Shown here one piece after another: positions 7,014 to 26,013 of a DNA stretch of 32,000 nucleotides (position 1 is its first letter; each line of letters opens with the position of its first letter). The stretch lies in contig NZ_CP046579.1 in NCBI RefSeq assembly GCF_013365475.1, positions 780,001 through 812,000 of the forward strand. Direction: 5' to 3'. Made by a program: the position numbers and the translations under genes. The notes beneath the pieces are model-generated. The model searched no databases. It saw only the letters and a program-made list of their open reading frames with translations, and had not been told where the DNA came from. Origin of the DNA: Candidatus Saccharimonadota bacterium. Its GTDB lineage: Bacteria > Pseudomonadota > Alphaproteobacteria > Rickettsiales > Anaplasmataceae.

Positions 7014-8339
7014 AGATTTCAAGTGCAAAGTAAATTGTAATCAGAATTTTTTAATTTAGCTACTGGTTTTACAAATTGTATCAGTATAATGATAGAGAAA
7101 AATGCTTCGCCTTAAATTTATTAAGTAAAGCCAAAATATAGCAATTACCAATGTTTGAGCAAGTAACAAATGCGAGTTAAGAGGGGTTAAGAAAGCGAGA
7201 AGTATAGAAGCCTTATGTGAAAATAGAGCGTTTAGAAGAAACAAGTAATTCACAATTAAGTGTGATGATATAAACAAATCTGGAAAGAAAATGGAAAAAG
7301 ATTTTATGAGAGCGGAAGATTAGAGTAGGTATAGAATATTTTGTGAATGTAAAACTATGAAAATGTTAAGCGAGTTGTTAAAAATTATAAATCTTGCATA
7401 GGTAAAATAATGTTTGGTAAGCTGTGTTGGATTAATATATGATGTGATGTTATATAACAAGAAAAAGCAAGCAGTAAGGAAAATATTATTGATAGAACAT
7501 TAATAAAAGATGTAAGTCTCAATCAAAAAGGCAAGGTTTAAGTTTTAAAAATTGGGAAAGGAAAGTTAAATTTTCTTTGTTTTTAAGTAACTTATTTCAT
7601 AAGGTATAATGTGTTAGTAAATAAATCTTAGATTTGTATCATAGCAGAATAAATCAAACCTCAAATGAAAGCGTAGTGATTGCTTATTATACCTAGAGCA
7701 AGTTATACAGTGGTATCAAATAATGATAAAAAGAAGAAATTATAGCGAAGAGAGGCAACGAGTTTTATTGTATAAAATGTTCAGAGAAGAGTGTTATTAC
7801 TTTGAAAAAGTCCCAAAACTCAGAATTTGGAGATTAGAATATGGTGCGTTAAGAAGTATGAAGGAAATGATGCATCTACTATGTAATTGACAATTGATAT
7901 ATTACATATTAATGGTAAACTAAAAATGACTCTTAATTCAGGTAATAGAAAATTAAGATGGTTCTATTTTCTAATAGAACTCATGAACATGAAAACAATG
8001 TACTAATTCTGGTATGATTAATGTTATATATAGATGATAAGAATTGTGAAGTCCTCTTAAAACATTGAAAGGATCTAAAAGATCAGCCATGTTATAGGAA
8101 AAGTCATTAGAATAAAAATTCTGCTTGGTAAGAACAGAAAGCAAAGTGTTTAGTATTTTAGAAGGAGTTGGTGTACTTGAATGCGCTAATTATATTCACT
8201 ACTTTTGGCTTAGAGGTTTTATTACTTAATGCACTGTATGTGCAATAGTATACCCAGGTATTCTATGATTTTTGATTTTACCAAATGTTAAAATTTTCTT
8301 ATTTTGTTATCGTGACAAGCATTTCAGGGTCCTTCTCAT

Positions 8340-9290
8340 AAAAGAAAAGTATCAAATTATAAGCTTTATAGAACCTATAGCAGCAGAAAATACTTGGTTT
8401 TTATCGCATTTGTTTCTTTAAGGGCCGAAAAAGACTCAAGGTATCCAGTATTTGTTTATTAATATGTAACTTACGATCTCTCCCATACTTATAAGTTGAC
8501 TAGTTTCTCCTATAAGAACTGCTTTATTAATTTAGTCTTTCTGCCTTTAAAATTGCTCCTTTACTAATTCAAGCATTGCTTCAACTCTTGGTTTTATAAT
8601 ATCAATAAGCTTGTATTTAGATACTTGAGTTAGTTTATCATCTCCATATTTATGGATCATAATGTATTCAGTTTTATCTATCAAGGTTATGGCAGTGTTA
8701 CCATGCAATATTTTTATATGCCCTGCATATTCTATGCTTGTACATAGTTCATAAGCTATGTCTCAGGTAATATGAACAACTCCTATTGGAATGCTGTTTG
8801 CATATATAACCTTACCTCCTTAAGAATTCTGACTACAGTGTAACCATCTATATCAACAATAGCAGTTCTGAGCTCTTTCTCATCTTAGCATAGGAAAGTA
8901 AATCCCACAGAATATGCAGAAGCAACACAACTAGCCATACTTATCGCTATCATTATACTTTTCAAATGTTTGGAAAACTACAAGTTTTATATCTCTGTCA
9001 GAAATTTTATGATTATCTTCTATAATTTCATTTGTACGTTGAAAGATGAAATTTCACATCCAGCAACTTCAACACATACTTGTTCTATGATTTTTTTGAT
9101 GCTTTTCAGCAATACCTATAGTTGATGGAATGGAGTCGGTTGTATCCCTTGCATATCAGTTACTGATCTGCTATATCTTCTGCAATTTTGTAACCTGTTC
9201 CTGCCATTTTATATCTGAGTTATTACTGATCTCAACAATTAGGAATAATCTCTATTCTACCTGTATCTAAAACAAAAAATATTTTTTTTG
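8340..9290 (-). pseudogene. ftsA: Decayed ftsA (actin/Hsp70-fold cell-division ATPase) remnant
   Basis: Reverse-strand translation in shifting frames gives collinear FtsA-like blocks: VLDTGRIEI (from 9273), VEVAGCEISS, ASAYSV, DEKELRTAIVDIDG, GGKVIYANSIPIGVVHIT*DIAYELCTSIEYAGHIKILHG (8819 downward, in-frame TGA at 8763-8765), SKYKLIDIIKPRVEAMLELVKEQF, NKAVLIGETSQLISMGEIV and VFSAAIGSIKLII. Order and spacing match E. coli FtsA (DERELGVCVVDIGGGT...VIPYAGNVVTSDIAYAFGTPPSDAEAIKVRHG...). There are multiple stops, frameshifts and an internal deletion. End coordinates are approximate. Confidence 0.75.
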
Positions 9291-9450
9291 GTTTTATTAT
9301 TACTGTAGAATACAGTAGTTGATTAATTATAGAATATCATTTAAGTTATGGATTGCTTTTAATTTATATTTCTGTTGTAGAAATGCATCAACATTTTTAT
9401 ACCTAAATATTGGATAGAATGGGAAGAAAAACTAGTAAAATTATAGTATT

Positions 9451-14671: not shown

Positions 14672-15055
14672 ATGAAAGAATTACCAAAAATAAAGTTACC
14701 AGAAGACTATGCTCCATCAGAAAATGAAGAATATATGAGTGTGAAACAGATTGAATACTTCAGTTTAAAACTGCAATCAATGCTTGCTGAGATGGAGAAG
14801 CATCAACTAGAAGAAAGTGCATACTATTCTGACGAAGATAATGGAAATGAAAGATTAATTAAGCTCAGAAAAGAGAGAAAAGAAAAAATCAAAGATGCAC
14901 TAAAAAAAATAAAATTGGGCACATACGGCTATTGTGAAAGAACAGGAGAAGAAATAGGAGCTGAAAGACTTAAAGCTAATCCGTTTGCTATATATTGCAT
15001 TGAAGAGCAAGAGAAATTAGAAAGGGAAAAAAATGCATATAATATTGAAGACTAA
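14672..15055 (+). CDS. dksA: DksA/TraR-family RNA polymerase-binding regulator (two-Cys variant)
   Basis: 127 aa. Coiled-coil N-terminus and C-terminal CERTGEEIGAERLKANPFAIYCIEEQ, aligning to E. coli [26 protein letters not shown]. Confidence 0.85.
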   Translation: MKELPKIKLPEDYAPSENEEYMSVKQIEYFSLKLQSMLAEMEKHQLEESAYYSDEDNGNERLIKLRKERKEKIKDALKKIKLGTYGYCERTGEEIGAERLKANPFAIYCIEEQEKLEREKNAYNIED

Positions 15056-15708
15056 CTTGAAAATATTTTAACAAATCTATTATTTGATTTCTTTCTTCTT
15101 GATCTTTCTAGCTTTTCTTTCTCTAATATAGAGCTTATTTCTTTCACACTTTTATCAATGTCATCATTGATTATTATGTAATCATATTTATCTCTCTTGC
15201 TTATCTCCTTTTGAGCTTCAGCTAGTCTACACTCTATCTCATTTGCACTATCAGCATTACGTTTTTGCAAACGTAGCCTAAGCTCTTCTATTGAGGGAGG
15301 AAGCATAAAAATGCTCACAACCTTTTCTCTCATAATTTTAAACAAATGAAATGCTCCTTGCCAATCTATACTCAGTAAGACACTTACTCCATTGTTTAGA
15401 TTTTGTTTTATAAAATCCTTTGGTATACCATAAAAATTTTTAAAGACCTTAGCGTGCTCAAGCATTTTACCAGACTTGCACAATTCATGAAACCTTTCCT
15501 CAGTGACGAAAAAATAGTCTTTCCCGTTTATTTCACCAGGACGAGGTTTACGTGTAGTTACAGAAATAGATCTAACTAGGTTAGTTGATTGATTAAATAA
15601 CCTCTCTAATACAGTAGTCTTTCCTGTCCCAGAGGGAGAAGATAGAATTAACAGTATACCATTCACTCTTTTTTGCCATTTTAAAAAGTAATTTAATAAG
15701 AATATCAT
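15052..15708 (-). CDS. gmk: Guanylate kinase
   Basis: P-loop SSPSGTGKTT with the guanylate kinase fold throughout. I prefer the ATG at 15708. The ORF track extends to a GTG at 15723. The stop overlaps the dksA stop convergently. Confidence 0.93.
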   Translation of the reverse strand: MIFLLNYFLKWQKRVNGILLILSSPSGTGKTTVLERLFNQSTNLVRSISVTTRKPRPGEINGKDYFFVTEERFHELCKSGKMLEHAKVFKNFYGIPKDFIKQNLNNGVSVLLSIDWQGAFHLFKIMREKVVSIFMLPPSIEELRLRLQKRNADSANEIECRLAEAQKEISKRDKYDYIIINDDIDKSVKEISSILEKEKLERSRRKKSNNRFVKIFSS

Positions 15709-16255
15709 AAATTCCTCACTCACTAAATTATAAACTTTCCAGAATTCATTCTTTCTTTAGGTCGGCTTCCAAAAGGCTATAACAGACAAAACTAGAATTC
15801 AATAGATTAGTAACCTTAGAAAGGAGCTACTAAAAGTAGCACAAGGCGAATCAGCCTTTTTAAAGGTTCAGCTATTTAAATTAATATTTATAAATTTCGT
15901 TCCGCTTAATCTTGAACAAGAAAAACAAGCATTTTTCAGATTCATGCTTTTAAACTCAAAGAGAGTAATTTATATTAAATCCTTTGCTTTGCAATATTTC
16001 TTCTTGTAACCCTTCAATTAAAGTTTTTTCTGCTATTTATTAGCAATTAAAATTGAATGGCAAAACCTATAATCTATCAGCAAGTATCAACAGTAGAATC
16101 TACATGCACTTGAAGAATAAAAATGTGCATTATCGATTACTGAATTACTGAGAAAAAAAGCTTATCTTTTTAAAAGCATTACTATTAAGCAGAGAAGATT
16201 TGAAGCTATTCTTAATAGAGCCTGAATTAGATACTCCTAGTTAAGAGATCCTGAA

Positions 16256-17473
16256 CTACTTCACTATTGAACTAGCAAACACTGGGTTTTCTATTTCACT
16301 AGAACTAATGCTATGGGAAAGGGTTGACTCATCAATTTGGGAGCCTTTTACCTTAACCTTATACATTGAGACCTTTGAAAGATCTATATTTTTTATCTCT
16401 GTAGAGGTAAATGATGAATAATCAAAAAAAGAACCGTTCATATTAGAATTTGTAACTTTAGCATTATTAAATTTCCCGTAACGGACGTCAGAGTCAGAAA
16501 TATTCACTTGGTCAAGTTCACTAGAACTGAAATCAATGTTAGATAGATCAGCATCACGAAGGATAACTTCATAAGCATATAAGTGTTTTATTTTAGAACC
16601 ATTCAGTATAGATTGCACAAAACTTGAATTATTACTACTGACATAGGAAATTTGTGTATTGCTTAAATTAGCCTTATTGAAGTTACTGTTAGTTATGATA
16701 GAAGAACTAAGGCGAACATTAGAAAGATCGCTACCTGTAAAATCTGATTCCTTTATTTCTGTACCATATATATTAGAATTCTCTAATGAAGAAAATTGTA
16801 CTTTTAATCCATGTAAATCAACTCCAAAAAAAATCGCATTATCAAGATTACTCTTTTGCACAACAGTATTACTTATTTCACTATCACTAAAGTCTACGTA
16901 ACCAATATCGGAGTTTAATAAACTAGAAAAATTCATTTTTACATTTGAAAAGTTAGTATGTATCCCAGCTATGTTGTGCATTCTAACCTTTCTTAGATTA
17001 GAGCTGATAAACTCAGCATAACTAACATTAGATTGAGTCAATATAATATCCGTCAAATTTGTATAAACAAATTTTGCGAAACTTAAGTCTGTATTTTCTA
17101 TTCTTACACCTTGTAAATTAGCATTGGAAAAATTAGCCCCACGTAAGTCAGCCTTAATAAAAGATACACCTGACAAATCAGTGTAAGAAAAATCAGATCC
17201 AACTAGATTAACCCCATCAAATGTGGATCTATTTAGGTACAACCCACTAAAATCAGCTCCACTTAAGTTAGGGCCAAAATTTTTCCCAAAGTCTTCTGGT
17301 ATACCTTCTTTATGGCACTTCATTAGAAATTTAGCAAAGTCTTGTTTACTATAAGATACATACTTTACCTCATGTAAAGTACTCAAAAAATTATCAACAG
17401 GATCTTCTATATTATTCACCACATACCCATAGCACAAATGACAGGCAAAAATCAATACCAAAAACTTAATCAC
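16256..17473 (-). CDS. Exported pentapeptide-repeat protein
   Basis: 405 aa. N-terminal signal-like segment (M)IKFLVLIFACHLCYG. From ADFSG to STLSH there are 63 consecutive pentapeptide units in one unbroken register, with the centre residue almost always L/F/I/V/M. The GTG start overlaps the upstream stop (GTGATTAA). Confidence 0.85.
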   Translation of the reverse strand: MIKFLVLIFACHLCYGYVVNNIEDPVDNFLSTLHEVKYVSYSKQDFAKFLMKCHKEGIPEDFGKNFGPNLSGADFSGLYLNRSTFDGVNLVGSDFSYTDLSGVSFIKADLRGANFSNANLQGVRIENTDLSFAKFVYTNLTDIILTQSNVSYAEFISSNLRKVRMHNIAGIHTNFSNVKMNFSSLLNSDIGYVDFSDSEISNTVVQKSNLDNAIFFGVDLHGLKVQFSSLENSNIYGTEIKESDFTGSDLSNVRLSSSIITNSNFNKANLSNTQISYVSSNNSSFVQSILNGSKIKHLYAYEVILRDADLSNIDFSSSELDQVNISDSDVRYGKFNNAKVTNSNMNGSFFDYSSFTSTEIKNIDLSKVSMYKVKVKGSQIDESTLSHSISSSEIENPVFASSIVK

Positions 17474-18698
17474 TTTTTTTGCTATAACAAAATTTATTAT
17501 CTTCTTTTGCCTTTATAGACCAATTATGCATCTCTAAGTCTTCTCCTTTATTGCCTATTCCTTCAGATTCCGAAAAACATGGCATCATCTCAGCAATCGC
17601 ATTTACTATGTCAACTCGTTCTCTTTCAATCGCTATACTAATAGGAGATTGAAGATTGTTATTAATCACTCTAGGGTCAGCACCTTGTAATAAGAGGAAA
17701 CGCACTATATCTATTCTTCCTTGCTTGACAGCATAAATTAGAGGAGTATCTCCCAGCTTATTTCTAAACTTCAGCACCTCTTGAACTGTTAACTCAAGCT
17801 TTTCTAATTTACTCATTATTCCTCTTAAGCAAATTAAATTGTTCTTTCTAACACAATAAAAAAGCTGCTTACTATAGTCAGTAACAGACACGGCTGTTGG
17901 AAGATGCTCATTAAGCAGACCATATTGTTTCTTGTATATTGCACTATCTTGTGCATCTTTATAATGCCATCCTTTCGCTGATTCTCTGCTTAATTTTATC
18001 CACTTTTGTAAATTTTTCTCTTCCTCACGTTTACTTTTCTCATCTTTATTAGGAATAGTTCCATCTATATCAGAGCCTTTATCTAATTCCTTCACTCCTT
18101 CTGCAACTAAGGCATGCAACTTTTTCTCTTCTAACAATTCGTCTATATTATTTCCAAAATGTTCATTCTTTTCAATATCAACTTCCCTATTAATTTGTAT
18201 ATTCCCCTCCAAATAAGTTGGATTTTCACTTAGACTAGTACTTGCAAGGAAAGTTAAATTTTTACTAACCCCTATGTTAATAGAATTAAGTAAATTTAGA
18301 GTAGTCCAATTTTTACTTCTCTTTAACAGATCCCAGCTAAAATCCAGTAAAACTTTATTATTCCTCTTTGCCAAATTTACATCATTTTCAATTGCAAAAG
18401 TTTTGTTCTTATTATAGTGTAGCCTTTCTTTACTTCCTGTTTTTCTAGTTTTGATATTCTGTATATGTTCAATATCTAACTTATCAACTGCATTTTTGAA
18501 TGGCTCCAAGACATTTCCCTGTCGAATCTTACTTTGTAGTAAAACTTGTTTTAGATGCTCCACAACACCTATATCTCCAAGTAAAGGACTAATTGGCTTA
18601 CTTATATTGATTTTCTTTTCTTCAAACTGACCTATAGCAAATAAACTCACTGAGCTAAATAAGAAAAATAATGATATAAAGTACAAAATACTCTTCAT
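17466..18698 (-). CDS. Exported ankyrin-repeat protein
   Basis: 410 aa. Signal-like N-terminus MKSILYFISLFFLFSSVSLFAIGQ. C-terminal ANK repeats (GDTPLIYAVKQGRIDIVRFLLLQGADPRVINNNLQSPISIAIERERVDIVNAI, roughly nt 17583-17870). The remaining ~270 aa have no recognisable family. Confidence 0.8.
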   Translation of the reverse strand: MKSILYFISLFFLFSSVSLFAIGQFEEKKINISKPISPLLGDIGVVEHLKQVLLQSKIRQGNVLEPFKNAVDKLDIEHIQNIKTRKTGSKERLHYNKNKTFAIENDVNLAKRNNKVLLDFSWDLLKRSKNWTTLNLLNSINIGVSKNLTFLASTSLSENPTYLEGNIQINREVDIEKNEHFGNNIDELLEEKKLHALVAEGVKELDKGSDIDGTIPNKDEKSKREEEKNLQKWIKLSRESAKGWHYKDAQDSAIYKKQYGLLNEHLPTAVSVTDYSKQLFYCVRKNNLICLRGIMSKLEKLELTVQEVLKFRNKLGDTPLIYAVKQGRIDIVRFLLLQGADPRVINNNLQSPISIAIERERVDIVNAIAEMMPCFSESEGIGNKGEDLEMHNWSIKAKEDNKFCYSKKSD

Positions 18699-19347
18699 AA
18701 ATGTTTTATTAGAAGCTTAGCTAAAAAGTATTACCAATAGAATAATTAATCTATATTAAAAATGAATATGAGAAATAAAGGAAAATTATGAATTTTGTAA
18801 CAGCAATATTAGCATGATACAAAAATAAAACATGTATTCTTATAAAAGTCTTGCAAATGCAGCACAATCGGCATTCATTAAGCTATCCAAGAAAATTGCA
18901 ATTTTTCTATTCTCATAGCCATCAAACTTACTACTCTATTTTTAACAATGTTCTTACTAAATTTGTAACACCAACTATATATCTGTGCATAAACTTAATC
19001 TTTCAAGCCCTTTGCTTTTATTTCTAATCATTACCTGTTTAAAACTACTTTTATTGTTCACTAAAACTAACATTTCTTCTAGACCAAGCTTCTCGAGTTT
19101 ACAATTTTCTTTCACAAGAAAAACATAGCCCGACTTCCATATTTTAGAAGAGAACAAAATACTACATATTTTATACATATAAAATACTAATGCTTGCCTT
19201 GACTTATATTAGCTCTATTAATAAAGGTATAGAAACAACTCAACTACAACATTAAAAGCTATCAACAAGGATTCAGTATAATTTAGGTTACATACCTAAG
19301 TAATATAAAATGACTAAAGTGGACAATTATGCATTAGCAGCAATATA

Positions 19348-19437
19348 CGGAGAGAGAGGGATTCGAACCCTCGATATAACTTTTAATTATATAACGGTTT
19401 AGCAAACCGCCGCCTTCAGCCACTCGGCCACCTCTCC
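19348..19437 (-). tRNA. tRNA-Ser (anticodon GCU)
   Basis: The reverse complement folds as a class II tRNA. Acceptor GGAGAGG/TCTCTCC, anticodon stem GCGGT/ACCGT with loop TTGCTAA, a long all-A/T variable arm, T arm GAGGG-TTCGAAT-CCCTC. Confidence 0.9.
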
Positions 19438-19565
19438 AAATTTTGGAACAAAGCTCATATATAATACCAAGGCCTCTAATAACCTGTCTAACACTTTTAA
19501 TAGCAATATTTTACGATACTTTATTACCCAAATAATTGAAAATTGGTTCTCATCACAAACAAGTT

Positions 19566-20072
19566 TTACTCAATAGCACTCTCAATAATCTCTTTAGCTT
19601 CTTTCATACCGACCCAATCACTAACTATTACTGTTTTTCCCTTCTCTAAATCTTTATAATGTAAAAAGAAATGGGTAATTTTATCCAGCAGATTTTTAGG
19701 TAAATCAGAATAGTTTTTTATATTATCATAATAATTATCAACACTGGAGATAGGTACAGCCAATACTTTTTCATCTTCTCCTTTCTCATCCCTAGTAAGT
19801 AAAGCACCTATTAGACGTACTGGTATCAAAACACCAGGTGTCAAGGGATATTGGGTTAATACTAAAGCATCTACAGGATCACCATCACCTGCACAGGTAT
19901 TTGGTATAAATCCATAATTACAAGGATAGACCATTGTAGTAGATAAAAATCTGTTGACTTGCAATAATCCAAGTTCCCTATCAAATTCATACTTTATAGG
20001 TTTAGCATTCGCACCTATTTCAATCATCACATTTATTACATCTGCTGTTACAGTTATTTTACTCAAATCCAT
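19566..20072 (-). CDS. ppa: Inorganic pyrophosphatase (family I)
   Basis: 168 aa with YPCNYGFIPNTCAGDGDPVDALVL. Confidence 0.96.
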   Translation of the reverse strand: MDLSKITVTADVINVMIEIGANAKPIKYEFDRELGLLQVNRFLSTTMVYPCNYGFIPNTCAGDGDPVDALVLTQYPLTPGVLIPVRLIGALLTRDEKGEDEKVLAVPISSVDNYYDNIKNYSDLPKNLLDKITHFFLHYKDLEKGKTVIVSDWVGMKEAKEIIESAIE

Positions 20073-20138
20073 AAATTACCTCTTACTAAGAGTAAACAAT
20101 TATATAATATATATTTTTAGCGGCTATTTAGAAACCAC

Positions 20139-20687
20139 TTAAATTAACTTAGATAAGTAAATGGCAACTTTACAACCTGTTTTTATGAATGAAGATAAAA
20201 CATTATAGCCAAATACGTCCTTAGCGTTGTACTTAATTGCAATATTCCTATGCTCTAACTCTTCATCACGAAACTTGTTTATAGTTTCTCTTAATTCATC
20301 ATCTTCTAAATGTAAAACTTGCTCTTTATAATGCTTTTCAATTACTTCCTCAACTGCAGCAGTACAAGCCATGGCAGCTTTTTCACCCATAATGGCCGTT
20401 GCAACACCAAGTGATACTCCCAATATACGCCAAATCGGTAATAAAATAGTAGGATGAATTTTCCTCTTTTTAATCTCCTGACTAAAATAGTGAAAATGTT
20501 TCTTTTCTTGTTCTTCCATTTCAATTATTCTATTGATTATAGAAGATTCTTTAAGAATAAATTTTTGACCAGAATAAATACAAACAGCTCCATACTCTCC
20601 AGCATGGTTTACTCTAATTGCTTGTTCTAAAAATTTTCTTTTCATCATCCCAATATTGCAGCTTCCTTTTCTCAAAATCTTCTCCAT
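20139..20687 (-). CDS. coq7: Demethoxyubiquinone hydroxylase (COQ7-type di-iron ubiquinone biosynthesis protein)
   Basis: 182 aa. RVNHAGEYGAVCIYSGQ, EEQEKKH and DEELEH carboxylate/His di-iron motifs. Confidence 0.9.
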   Translation of the reverse strand: MEKILRKGSCNIGMMKRKFLEQAIRVNHAGEYGAVCIYSGQKFILKESSIINRIIEMEEQEKKHFHYFSQEIKKRKIHPTILLPIWRILGVSLGVATAIMGEKAAMACTAAVEEVIEKHYKEQVLHLEDDELRETINKFRDEELEHRNIAIKYNAKDVFGYNVLSSFIKTGCKVAIYLSKLI

Positions 20688-21977
20688 CTATTTCTAATCA
20701 ACACTACTATAAGCAAATTTACTATGGTGAATAAAACTTTACATAATAACTGTATGAACTTTTATGACTTCTAGAAATTTAAAGTTTTCCTTAAAATCAC
20801 TTAAGAACCTCATTAATCACGTTCTACCTAATACCTAGATATTTTATTATCTTTAATCTTACAAGTTAATGATCGAAGTACTGATTATTAGTATCTTATA
20901 TCTAATTTTTGCACCACATATATTTTTCGTCTTTATTAACTTTTTTAGATCATAAGTCCTACAGCTATAGTTGTTTCAAGAAGCAAAGAAAATTAACTCG
21001 CAGAACGAGGAAATGGAAATTCTCTCTTATAGAATATACTTTATCTTGTTTTACTTAAAGATTTTTTAGCAGCTATAGTTAATATAATTATTAAAGAAAC
21101 ATTTTTATTTATTTTTCTGGATTCTCTACTGTTTGTTACTAGATAACATTTCTTTGGACAGATACTCAAGCCATAATATTTATATGGCTTTAAACCTAGA
21201 AGAGAAGGATGAGACTACAAACCTTATACTGCCAGACAGTGGGGGTGCTTATTTCATTAAGCTGCAATTACAGAATAAATTAGGAAAAACTTCACTTCTA
21301 ATCAGCATGAAATAAGGGAATTGAAATTCACAATTAGGAACTTAGATATCTATTTTTATACCTCATTTGTTTCTCTTCAGTCTTTCTCCTGACATCTCAA
21401 AGATTCTACATGTGAGATTTGCTCTGTAGACTTTCTAGCTTTGTTTCTTTAACAGAGGAAAAGACATAAAACTTATAGAAAGCAACACAAATTACAGCTA
21501 CTATCTAAAGCTAATAGACCATACTATTTCTATTTTTTTATTTTCTCTGCTTTAATAACCGTTATTATTTAGTCCTACTATATTTGCCAAACAAAGAATT
21601 GATACCATTATCGTGATAGAAATATTGGAAGATCAGACTTCTATCATTAGTGCTGTAATTTTTCAAAATCTCTAAGAAAGTTACTATTATTGCTTGCAAT
21701 ATATTACTCTTCCTTCTCCTCTCATTGGATATATTATCCAATAGATTTTCCGCAGCAAATTTTTATACAAACCTTTAAGCTTTTACTTATCCATTAATTC
21801 ATAACGCCTAATGTATCAAGGAGTGTAAAAATTCTTAAGTATCCCTAAGGACTTTTTCAATATGATTCAACTTATGCCTCTTTAAAAGACCATTATCGAT
21901 TAACATAGTGGACTACCTAAATCTACAAATAAATATTCACTGCACAATTTTATAACTATTTATCAATTGAACATAAT

Positions 21978-25303: not shown

Positions 25304-25423
25304 ATATTTCTCATTTAATAATGCAATTTTATCTCTTGAATTTAATCTTTGCAATTAGTGACTTCCAGAGCAAAATTCCAGCTTTTGTTTTATAAAAGTT
25401 TCAGTTATATATACAAAAAACTA

Positions 25424-25452
25424 TTTACAATCAAATTGTAATGTGATAAGTT
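25424..25452 (+). promoter_or_regulatory. Putative promoter for tRNA-Asn (duplicated with the repeat)
   Basis: TTTACA, 17 nt spacer, TAAGTT, ending 13 nt upstream of the tRNA 5' end. An identical copy lies at 25794-25822. This is a sequence match only. Confidence 0.25.
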
Positions 25453-25465
25453 AAAGATAGTTTAC

Positions 25466-25540
25466 TCCTCGGTAGCTCAGTGGTAGAGTAATTGGTTGTT
25501 AACCAATTGGTCGCTGGTTCGAATCCAGCCTGGGGAGCCA
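25466..25540 (+). tRNA. tRNA-Asn (anticodon GUU), variant copy
   Basis: Cloverleaf TCCTCGG/CTGGGGA, D arm GCTC-AGTGGTA-GAGT, anticodon stem ATTGG/CCAAT with loop TTGTTAA, T arm GCTGG-TTCGAAT-CCAGC, and an encoded CCA. Confidence 0.85.
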
Positions 25541-25730
25541 CATCGATATCGATCTCAGTAGTGAGCTTTGTTTCTAATACTTAACATATGTAGCTCTTTC
25601 TTTTAGTTACTACTTAAAGGTTTCTGCTTCATATTAAGCTTGTTAGTTTTTACTGTTTTCTTGAAGGTTGGTACTCTCTAGTTTCTACGAAAAAGTGAAT
25701 TTTCTTAAAATCAAATCTTTATAATCAACA

Positions 25731-25964
25731 ACTTCCAGAGCAAAATTCCAGCTTTTGTTTTATAAAAGTTTCAGTTATATATACAAAAAACTATTTACAA
25801 TCAAATTGTAATGTGATAAGTTAAAGATAGTTTACTCCTCGGTAGCTCAGTGGTAGAGCAGTTGGCTGTTAACCAATTGGTCGCTGGTTCGAATCCAGCC
25901 TGGGGAGCCACATCGATATCGATCTCAGTAGTGAGCTTTGTTTCTAATACTTAACATATGTAGC
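25731..25964. repeat. Direct repeat copy 2 (234 bp, contains tRNA-Asn copy 2)
   Basis: See copy 1. I aligned the two copies block by block by eye. Confidence 0.97.
25836..25910 (+). tRNA. tRNA-Asn (anticodon GUU), canonical copy
   Basis: Same fold as copy 1, but with D stem GAGC, anticodon stem GTTGG/CCAAT and the canonical loop CTGTTAA. CCA is encoded. Confidence 0.92.
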
Positions 25965-26013
25965 CCTTTATCATAATATAAAGCTTATTAAAAATTAAGT
26001 AAAGCTAATGCAT

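Follow-up and report, generated by a model that had tools for sequence, protein, structure and literature searches.

An ankyrin-repeat gene overlapping a truncated pentapeptide-repeat gene in a divergent Wolbachia genome, and the conservation of the pair across the genus

In a stretch of 32,000 nucleotides (nt) of a bacterial contig (NZ_CP046579.1, positions 780,001 to 812,000 of the forward strand; hereafter the window), it was found that an ankyrin-repeat (ANK) gene and a pentapeptide-repeat protein (PRP) gene overlap by 8 nt on the minus strand, the strand of all the gene features of this locus described below. The ANK gene (17466..18698) encodes 410 amino acids (aa) from an ATG start and was recognized as an open reading frame (ORF) with Pfam Ank_2/Ank matches and Wolbachia orthologs. 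The PRP gene (16256..17473) encodes 405 aa from a GTG start and was recognized as an ORF with a Pfam match; it is a truncated copy of the ~598-aa WD0440 family. The locus is the window strain's copy of an ancient Wolbachia-wide ANK-PRP unit, whose two products are probably co-translated, exported by the Sec system, and active together. Chance cannot account for the two ORFs, their overlap, the repeat register, and the N-terminal segments.

The overlapping pair is conserved in Wolbachia

Is this pair common in Wolbachia? Species-representative genomes were scanned with an alignment of the ANK protein, which gave 20 Wolbachia loci, and PRP orthologs were recovered at the DNA level from the loci fetched in this way. 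A tblastn search revealed a PRP ortholog directly 3′ of the ANK gene in 20 of the 20 loci, with 46-82% identity to the wDimm protein. The gmk gene comes next after the PRP gene in 19 of them, the remaining contig (L011) stopping before gmk. An earlier reading made from the window sequence alone (the sequence-only reading) had named a lack of co-conservation as a ground for giving up the pair; instead, both genes are present in every Wolbachia locus examined. In wDimm, the gene following the ANK gene encodes a 598-aa protein whose N-terminus is like that of the window PRP, and wWb and wBm have intact PRP genes of 596 and 601 aa at the equivalent site. In the coordinate table of Gutzwiller et al., wMel WD0440 lies at 422906-424711 (1806 nt, 601 codons) and WD0441 at 424704-425912 (1209 nt). 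The WD0441/WD0440 overlap is thus 8 nt, as in the window, and WD0439 lies downstream of WD0440, where other loci have gmk. The window PRP gene is the ortholog of WD0440. In wMel, the read counts per kb of WD0440 and WD0441 are similar.

The overlap of the upstream stop codon and the downstream GTG at 17466-17473, as reported in the sequence-only reading, can be read directly as GTGATTAA, with the PRP GTG at 17473-17471 and the ANK TAA at 17468-17466. The GTG is the earliest usable start downstream of an in-frame stop and lines up with the start codons of the orthologs. A survey of the junctions showed that most PRP orthologs start with ATG and that the ATGATTAG/ATGA arrangement, with an overlap of 4 or 8 nt, occurs in most Wolbachia loci, the larger gaps being found mainly in supergroup C. 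Since this arrangement is the common state, the start/stop overlap is ancestral to the genus. Three features expected of coupled genes are seen, namely the same strand, the stop/start overlap, and no terminator between the genes; a promoter/terminator scan found no terminator-like site at the ANK/PRP junction. The supergroup C ANK genes, as in the wDimm and wOo loci, have lost the last ~25 codons, and in wDimm the tblastn similarity runs on beyond the ANK stop codon. The loss of these codons results in a gap of 61-80 nt before the PRP gene in that supergroup. The window ANK gene keeps the C-terminal tail that is absent from the supergroup C copies. As for the wider neighborhood, coq7, ppa, and the tRNA-Ser gene lie upstream of the pair in supergroup C/J/D-type genomes, and the downstream order is PRP-gmk-dksA-ccmB.

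The ankyrin gene and its orthologs

Full-length relatives of the window ANK protein were found solely in Wolbachia, at 43-57% identity and 92-100% query coverage, none being closer than 57%. They come from filarial, arthropod, collembolan, and plant-nematode strains, while the matches outside Wolbachia are confined to generic ankyrin repeats (10-22% coverage). The window thus belongs to a divergent Wolbachia rather than to Ehrlichia or Anaplasma, and the effector framing borrowed from those two genera in the sequence-only reading had to be abandoned. The strains nearest to the window are wOo, wDcau, and wDimm, with 74-90% identity in the flanking proteins, and the window strain is likely a supergroup C/J-like filarial Wolbachia.

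The window ANK gene is the ortholog of wMel WD0441, wBm Wbm0582 (accession AAW71170), and wPip_ANK34. These three were equated by Walker et al. (2007, PMC2045654), whose remark on wPip_ANK34 is 'Signal peptide'. WD0441 was described as a 'true ortholog' found in all tested A and B strains, with a 3′ ankyrin part ~90% identical between supergroups A and B and a 5′ part less than 50% identical (Siozios et al. 2013, PMC3563639). In the orthologs collected in this study, the 5′ half is likewise variable and the 3′ half, with the ankyrin repeats, is conserved, and the window gene shows the same pattern. WBM0582 is in a list of candidate effectors for the reason 'S, detected in Wolbachia secretome' (Carpinone et al. 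2018, PMC6160203), a paper in which it appears solely within the candidate table. In wMel, WD0441 ranks with the ANK genes of high expression (PMC4683655). Since the gene is listed in these four papers, the upstream gene of the pair is an already catalogued core gene.

The claim that such a pair is not a described system thus stood only in part. It failed for the ANK gene, which has been catalogued, with its signal peptide noted in 2007 (PMC2045654) and a secretome listing (PMC6160203), and it held for WD0440 and for the pairing, which are undiscussed in the searchable literature. There, nothing was found tying Wolbachia to this pentapeptide protein, and WD0440, Wbm0581, and Wbm0583 are not mentioned. 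What appears to be undescribed is the obligatory pairing of the ANK gene with WD0440 and the recurrent C-terminal erosion of PRP, the ANK gene itself having been named before.

From its N-terminus, the ANK protein runs through a signal segment, ~240 predicted-disordered residues, and a conserved motif to an ankyrin domain of three repeats, and it ends in a short tail. In an AlphaFold2 model built with 50 orthologs, a signal helix covers residues 4-15, and the predicted local distance difference test (pLDDT) score is below 50 over residues 18-260. Residues 22-230 (18009..18635) form a fast-evolving, charged region that is predicted to be disordered from the low pLDDT and the poor conservation in the alignment. 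A region of about 270 aa with no recognizable family had been set apart in the sequence-only reading. The N-terminal ~240-270 aa are now predicted to be disordered and fast-evolving rather than a cryptic domain; when the N-terminal 270 residues were searched for a concealed domain by fold comparison, matches were obtained with the ankyrin domain alone. Ahead of the ankyrin domain, the alignment shows a conserved motif, QKW..L....K.W....IYK.QY..LNEHLP, at residues 231-270 (17889..18008), whose columns are invariant or nearly so and whose model confidence is low. The ankyrin domain itself (residues 271-372; 17583..17888) is supported by AlphaFold2, Foldseek, and Pfam. The model has three helix pairs at residues 272-371 with a pLDDT of 84-96 (about 90), in line with the 2-3 C-terminal repeats counted before. 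Foldseek superposed ~99 residues on 3-repeat ankyrins (3ANK) and on DARPins with a root-mean-square deviation of ~2 Å. Pfam placed Ank_2 at residues 309-369 (E 5e-9), with 37 bits against a cut-off of 27.3 for Ank_2 and 33.6 against 21.1 for Ank.

The pentapeptide gene, its fold, and its lost 3′ third

The PRP protein matches Pfam Pentapeptide (PF00805) with 139 bits (E 2.7e-41, cut-off 20.2) in 9 stretches. Despite this score, the Pfam column is empty for the Wolbachia PRP genes called on contigs. Register analysis gave 65 pentads from residue 66 to ~390 (16304..17278) without a break, the central position being hydrophobic in 90% of them, where 63 units in one unbroken register (nt 16319-17272) had been counted before. 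The count was nearly right and the continuity was borne out by AlphaFold2, whose model is a single continuous beta-helix with period-5 strands at residues ~69-380 (pLDDT mostly 70-94, mean 75). PRP is thus predicted to be a right-handed quadrilateral beta-helix of the Rfr fold with ~16 coils. The top Foldseek matches are all pentapeptide proteins, namely HetL, synthetic beta1 solenoids, MfpA, Qnr, and AlbG. Between the signal segment and the helix lies a conserved helical cap (residues 17-65; 17279..17425), identified from the alignment and the model and conserved as DFL..LH..KY.SYSK.DFAKFL..C.KEG, with modeled helices at residues 25-34 and 43-56 of low pLDDT.

PRP is a member of no named family among those compared, because its NCBIfam scores are far below the cut-offs: 69 bits vs 240 for Qnr, 48 vs 360 for MfpA, 81 vs 354 for PipB2, and 73 vs 274 for PipB, those for HetL and DotG being likewise far under. 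The isoelectric point (pI) of the mature PRP is 5.1 (acidic), and that of the mature ANK protein is 8.7 (basic). Searches of protein libraries with PRP gave only generic pentapeptide proteins of ~25% identity and the fragments P0001 and P0263. Since the intact wBm PRP fails to find itself in these libraries, an absence of PRP outside Wolbachia cannot be concluded from them.

Full-length PRP orthologs have ~590-606 aa (about 598), and the window ORF aligns only with their residues 1-405. Over this part, it is collinear at 48-74% identity (66-74% to most arthropod and filarial strains). In the ancestral protein, as seen in an intact ortholog, the signal segment leads into a helical cap and a helix of 83 pentads (residues 66-480); a linker of ~45 residues then separates this helix from another block of ~14 pentads. 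The window PRP does not show this full architecture: its main helix ends 18 pentads early, and both the linker and the C-terminal 14-pentad block are missing. Other C-terminally eroded PRPs are those of wDcau (382 aa) and wOo (536 aa), while those of wDimm, wBm, and wWb are intact. It was considered whether the truncation is shared with wDcau; the relics of the window and wDcau failed to align, and the truncations may have a common or an independent origin. A further observation concerns a wBm-like contig of Logan SRR3111503 (L001), in which the PRP ortholog shifts frame at a T run around ~850-910 (…NANF|FGVD…) and is then open in the new frame to the contig end. Three causes are conceivable: a genuine frameshift, a site of polymerase slippage, or a fault in the assembly.

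It was revealed by tblastn and nucleotide alignment that the lost 3′ third remains in the window as a decayed sequence at 15724..16255, corresponding to the ancestral codons ~406-598. With the wMoz ortholog as the query, the homology crosses the window PRP stop codon in the same frame, running through 3 stops (…SSIVK*FRIS*LGVSNS…FFSQ*), and then picks up in another frame with 6 more stops up to the C-terminal block of the ortholog (…FEFKSMNLKNACFSCSRLSGTKFININLNS*). The relic thus contains at least 9 stops, one frameshift, and many insertions or deletions (indels). Across the 3′ third of the orthologs, the nucleotide identity is 71-78%, with 27-38 gap events in ~520 nt, while the retained part has 77-83% identity and 8-17 gap events in ~1200 nt. 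The pair had been described as insulated by spacers, and the downstream one of about 530 bp is a gene relic, not an insulator, because the homology and the alignment cover the whole 3′ third of the ortholog; the PRP gene holds 405 of ~598 codons.

Has the retained part been under selection? The pairwise ratio of nonsynonymous to synonymous substitution rates (dN/dS), which averages both lineages, is 0.18-0.29 between the window and its orthologs and 0.13-0.23 among the orthologs. From these values of about 0.2, the retained part appears to be under purifying selection. In intact PRP orthologs, the first 405 residues are 68% conserved and the remainder 67%. Since the two parts are equally conserved, the decay is specific to the window lineage. 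The 1215-nt 5′ part has no stop and no frameshift, and its protein alignment has one single-codon gap. Because indels at the rate of the relic (an excess of ~5 per 100 nt) would have broken this part, the 405-codon frame could not have stayed open under such decay. I conclude that, once the 3′ third had been lost, selection maintained the 5′ two-thirds of the PRP gene.

The N-terminal signal-like segments

Hydrophobic, signal-like N-termini had been noticed in both proteins, and this observation stands: each protein has one hydrophobic segment, at its extreme N-terminus, and no other. Residues 1-21 of ANK (18636..18698) are predicted to be a Sec signal peptide, MKSILYFISLFFLFSSVSLFA|IGQ, and residues 1-16 of PRP (17426..17473) a signal peptide, MIKFLVLIFACHLCYG|YVV. 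Both predictions are based on hydrophobicity and conservation, with putative cleavage sites. In 15 ANK orthologs, M1, L19, and A21 are invariant, and the motif M-I-R-F-L-I-L-I-L-x-G-H-L-C-Y-G of PRP is conserved genus-wide. The -3/-1 pattern is also conserved across Wolbachia, as LFA| in ANK and C-[YF]-[GAS]| in PRP. By manual inspection, a positive n-region, a hydrophobic h-region, and small residues at -3/-1 are found in all orthologs of both proteins. The Cys of the PRP signal was considered as a lipoprotein site and rejected, since a lipobox is absent: each Cys is preceded by A or L and not by G, A, or S.

Flanking and other features of the window

The conserved downstream neighbor gmk (guanylate kinase) lies at 15052..15723 on the same strand and was assigned by synteny. 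Upstream, a tRNA-Ser(GCU) gene lies at 19347-19438 on the minus strand (ARAGORN, Rfam tRNA), 648 nt from the ANK start, in agreement with the tRNA-Ser 650 bp upstream in the sequence-only reading. In arthropod strains, tRNA-Ser is much nearer to the ANK gene than in the window. Of these 648 nt, only the last ~75 nt align across 12 Wolbachia loci, as a conserved block abutting the ANK start (18699..18775) with the core TTTTTAATATAGATTAATTA. This block is a candidate promoter or leader, as inferred from its position and conservation. A consensus promoter scan found nothing in 18699..18775, and shuffled sequence gave more promoter-like sites than the real one. An Rfam scan of 15000-20200 found just the tRNA and an antisense artefact on it: a sub-threshold match to 'Plastid-psbl-rps4 3UTR' at 19348-19402 on the plus strand (61 bits vs a gathering score of 68), opposite to tRNA-Ser, is almost certainly due to an antisense tRNA inside that model.

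Elsewhere in the window, a direct repeat of 261 nt with 95% identity occupies 25339-25599 and 25709-25969, the starts being 370 nt apart. Each copy holds a tRNA-Asn(GTT) gene (25466-25540 and 25836-25910), a local tRNA gene duplication in a reduced genome. The region 7060-9450, ~2.4 kb without an ORF of more than 75 aa, lies between a der/engA-like GTPase gene and a peptide deformylase gene and probably consists of decayed gene remnants; a Pfam scan of its small ORFs gave no match. Another stretch of 1.3 kb without an ORF of at least 110 aa (20688-21977) lies between COQ7-like and NMO-like genes. At this site, wDimm has a similar uncalled gap, and wBm and wWb have a DsbB gene beside COQ7.

Discussion

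How might the ANK-PRP unit work? A single mRNA would carry both genes, starting probably near the conserved block at ~18775-18699, and coupled translation would supply ANK and PRP in matched amounts. Both proteins would be exported by Sec, with cleavage after A21 in ANK and after G16 in PRP, and, once beyond the cytoplasm, would work together in the periplasm, the envelope, or the vacuole lumen. The surface or vacuole-lumen module for host interaction proposed in the sequence-only reading is likewise conjectural. The acidic PRP may be a rigid rod ~8 nm long, and in the basic ANK protein a flexible tether may carry an ankyrin groove for protein binding. The C-terminal module of PRP would be dispensable in the window lineage. 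The report of Wbm0582 in the worm secretome and the fast-evolving tether of ANK favor a role at the envelope or the interface; the housekeeping neighborhood, together with the strong conservation, leaves some probability to a purely periplasmic role.

Several points weigh against this reading. Co-transcription in the window strain and the interaction and location of PRP are putative. The correlation of expression in wMel was tried as a test of co-transcription and is uninformative: rho is 0.75, but unrelated neighbors reach 0.7-0.9 and the counts are raw. The signal peptides were judged by manual criteria, and the hydrophobic core of PRP is short (~8 residues). The 'secretome' evidence for Wbm0582 is second-hand, being taken from a table. 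With its GTG start and the loss of one third, the PRP gene would probably be called a pseudogene by an annotation pipeline. In addition, a pairwise dN/dS of about 0.2 averages both lineages and does not prove current constraint in the window strain.

Since pairwise dN/dS does not isolate the window lineage, a recent pseudogene keeps some weight. In that case, the 405-codon ORF would be a remnant awaiting disruption, with ANK alone functional. The loss and decay of one third of the ancestral gene, the GTG instead of ATG, the erosion in the filarial-type Wolbachia wDcau (382 aa) and wOo (536 aa), the frameshift in a Logan contig, and the other ORF-poor stretches in this genome region are all in its favor. 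Against it, the relic carries 9 or more stops, a frameshift, and an excess of ~5 indels per 100 nt; the 1215 nt on the 5′ side have no stop or frameshift and one single-codon gap. Moreover, the identity of the window PRP to its orthologs (66-74%) equals the level among the orthologs (68%), dN/dS is about 0.2, and PRP retains an unbroken register along with its intact cap and signal segment. I therefore regard a pseudogene as rather unlikely.

If PRP is functional, where does the pair act? That both proteins are type IV secretion effectors in the host cytosol, the usual assumption for ankyrin proteins of Wolbachia, PRP being a motor or cytoskeleton adaptor like PipB2 or a DNA mimic like MfpA/Qnr, could be argued from the short-listing of Wbm0582 as a candidate type IV effector (PMC6160203), the partial matches of PRP to the PipB2, PipB, Qnr, and MfpA models, and the acidity of the mature PRP. 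It seems improbable, as these matches score far below the cut-offs (PipB2 81 vs 354, Qnr 69 vs 240, MfpA 48 vs 360), Wbm0582 is only a candidate-table entry in PMC6160203, and the conserved, cleavable-type N-terminal signals suggest Sec export, not recruitment from the cytoplasm to a type IV system. The strong conservation across arthropod and nematode hosts, with dN/dS about 0.2, is also unlike that of arms-race effectors. The same conservation speaks for a purely bacterial, periplasmic housekeeping function in envelope architecture or chaperoning, without host contact, like that of the thylakoid-lumen pentapeptide proteins. The pair belongs to the core of every Wolbachia supergroup, the reduced filarial genomes among them, is under purifying selection, and has the neighbors ppa, gmk, dksA, and ccmB, possibly being co-transcribed with gmk; the exported PRPs TL15 and Rfr32/Rfr23 are among its Protein Data Bank (PDB) sequence matches. 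Nevertheless, the N-terminal half of ANK evolves very fast, which is more typical of interface proteins, and the worm secretome is reported to contain Wbm0582. The searches gave no relative outside Wolbachia, though this PRP family is evidently absent from the protein libraries. Housekeeping alone is accordingly given a slim chance.

Beyond the co-translated, exported pair acting together, a bolder reading can be stated, although I would not expect it to prove right: WD0441/WD0440 may be a genus-defining, Sec-exported heterocomplex at the Wolbachia-host interface in arthropods and nematodes, built of a rigid, acidic PRP rod and an ankyrin adaptor with a disordered tether, and with a PRP C-terminal module needed only in some hosts. 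If so, the repeated loss of this module in filarial-type lineages (the window strain, wDcau, and wOo) would be explained. WD0441/Wbm0582 has been screened as an effector candidate alone, yet it is start/stop-joined to WD0440 in every genome examined. Should ANK and PRP indeed cooperate, screens of single genes, in yeast or in flies, would have overlooked the functional unit. A pair that is conserved over all supergroups and exported could be a handle on the envelope and interface biology of Wolbachia, including the filarial symbionts, which are drug targets, and the natural C-terminal truncations mark the dispensable part of PRP.

Comparison with known systems

The closest counterparts of the pair are its own orthologs. 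WD0441/Wbm0582/wPip_ANK34 resemble the window ANK protein in full-length collinearity (43-57% identity), the N-terminal signal segment, and the genomic neighbors. WD0440 and its ~598-aa orthologs (wBm, wWb, wDimm, and wMoz) share with the window PRP the position, the overlap, the signal segment, the cap, and the register over residues 1-405. The WD0440 family differs from the window PRP in being full length, and the truncations in wDcau and wOo are comparable to that of the window, not identical.

Among ankyrin-repeat proteins of the same bacterial family, Anaplasmataceae, AnkA and Ank200 have no detectable orthology with the window ANK protein. They are large and have no Sec signal. As for pentapeptide-repeat proteins, MfpA and Qnr are acidic right-handed quadrilateral beta-helices like PRP. 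In contrast, they are cytoplasmic, gyrase-binding dimers of ~200 aa and ~8-10 coils, while PRP, with 405 to 598 aa, is twice the length and has a predicted signal peptide. Salmonella PipB2 and PipB, which act at the vacuole-host interface, are also pentapeptide-repeat proteins of an intracellular bacterium, and the partial model match has an E-value of 5.6e-23. However, the PipB2 score is 81 against 354 bits, and no C-terminal kinesin-binding motif is evident in the window PRP. Moreover, PipB2 lacks a Sec signal, and its injection depends on a type III system, a machinery absent from Wolbachia.

The thylakoid-lumen TL15 of Arabidopsis (3n90) and Cyanothece Rfr32 (2f3l/2g0y) and Rfr23 (2o6w), found as PDB sequence matches, share with PRP both the Rfr beta-helix and an N-terminal targeting signal. 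They are lumenal, in a compartment equivalent to the periplasm. They have ~5-6 coils, as compared with 16 in the window PRP and ~21 plus a second block in the ancestral protein. Their sequence kinship with PRP is limited to the repeat, and they have no ankyrin partner, unlike the PRP of the window and its Wolbachia orthologs.

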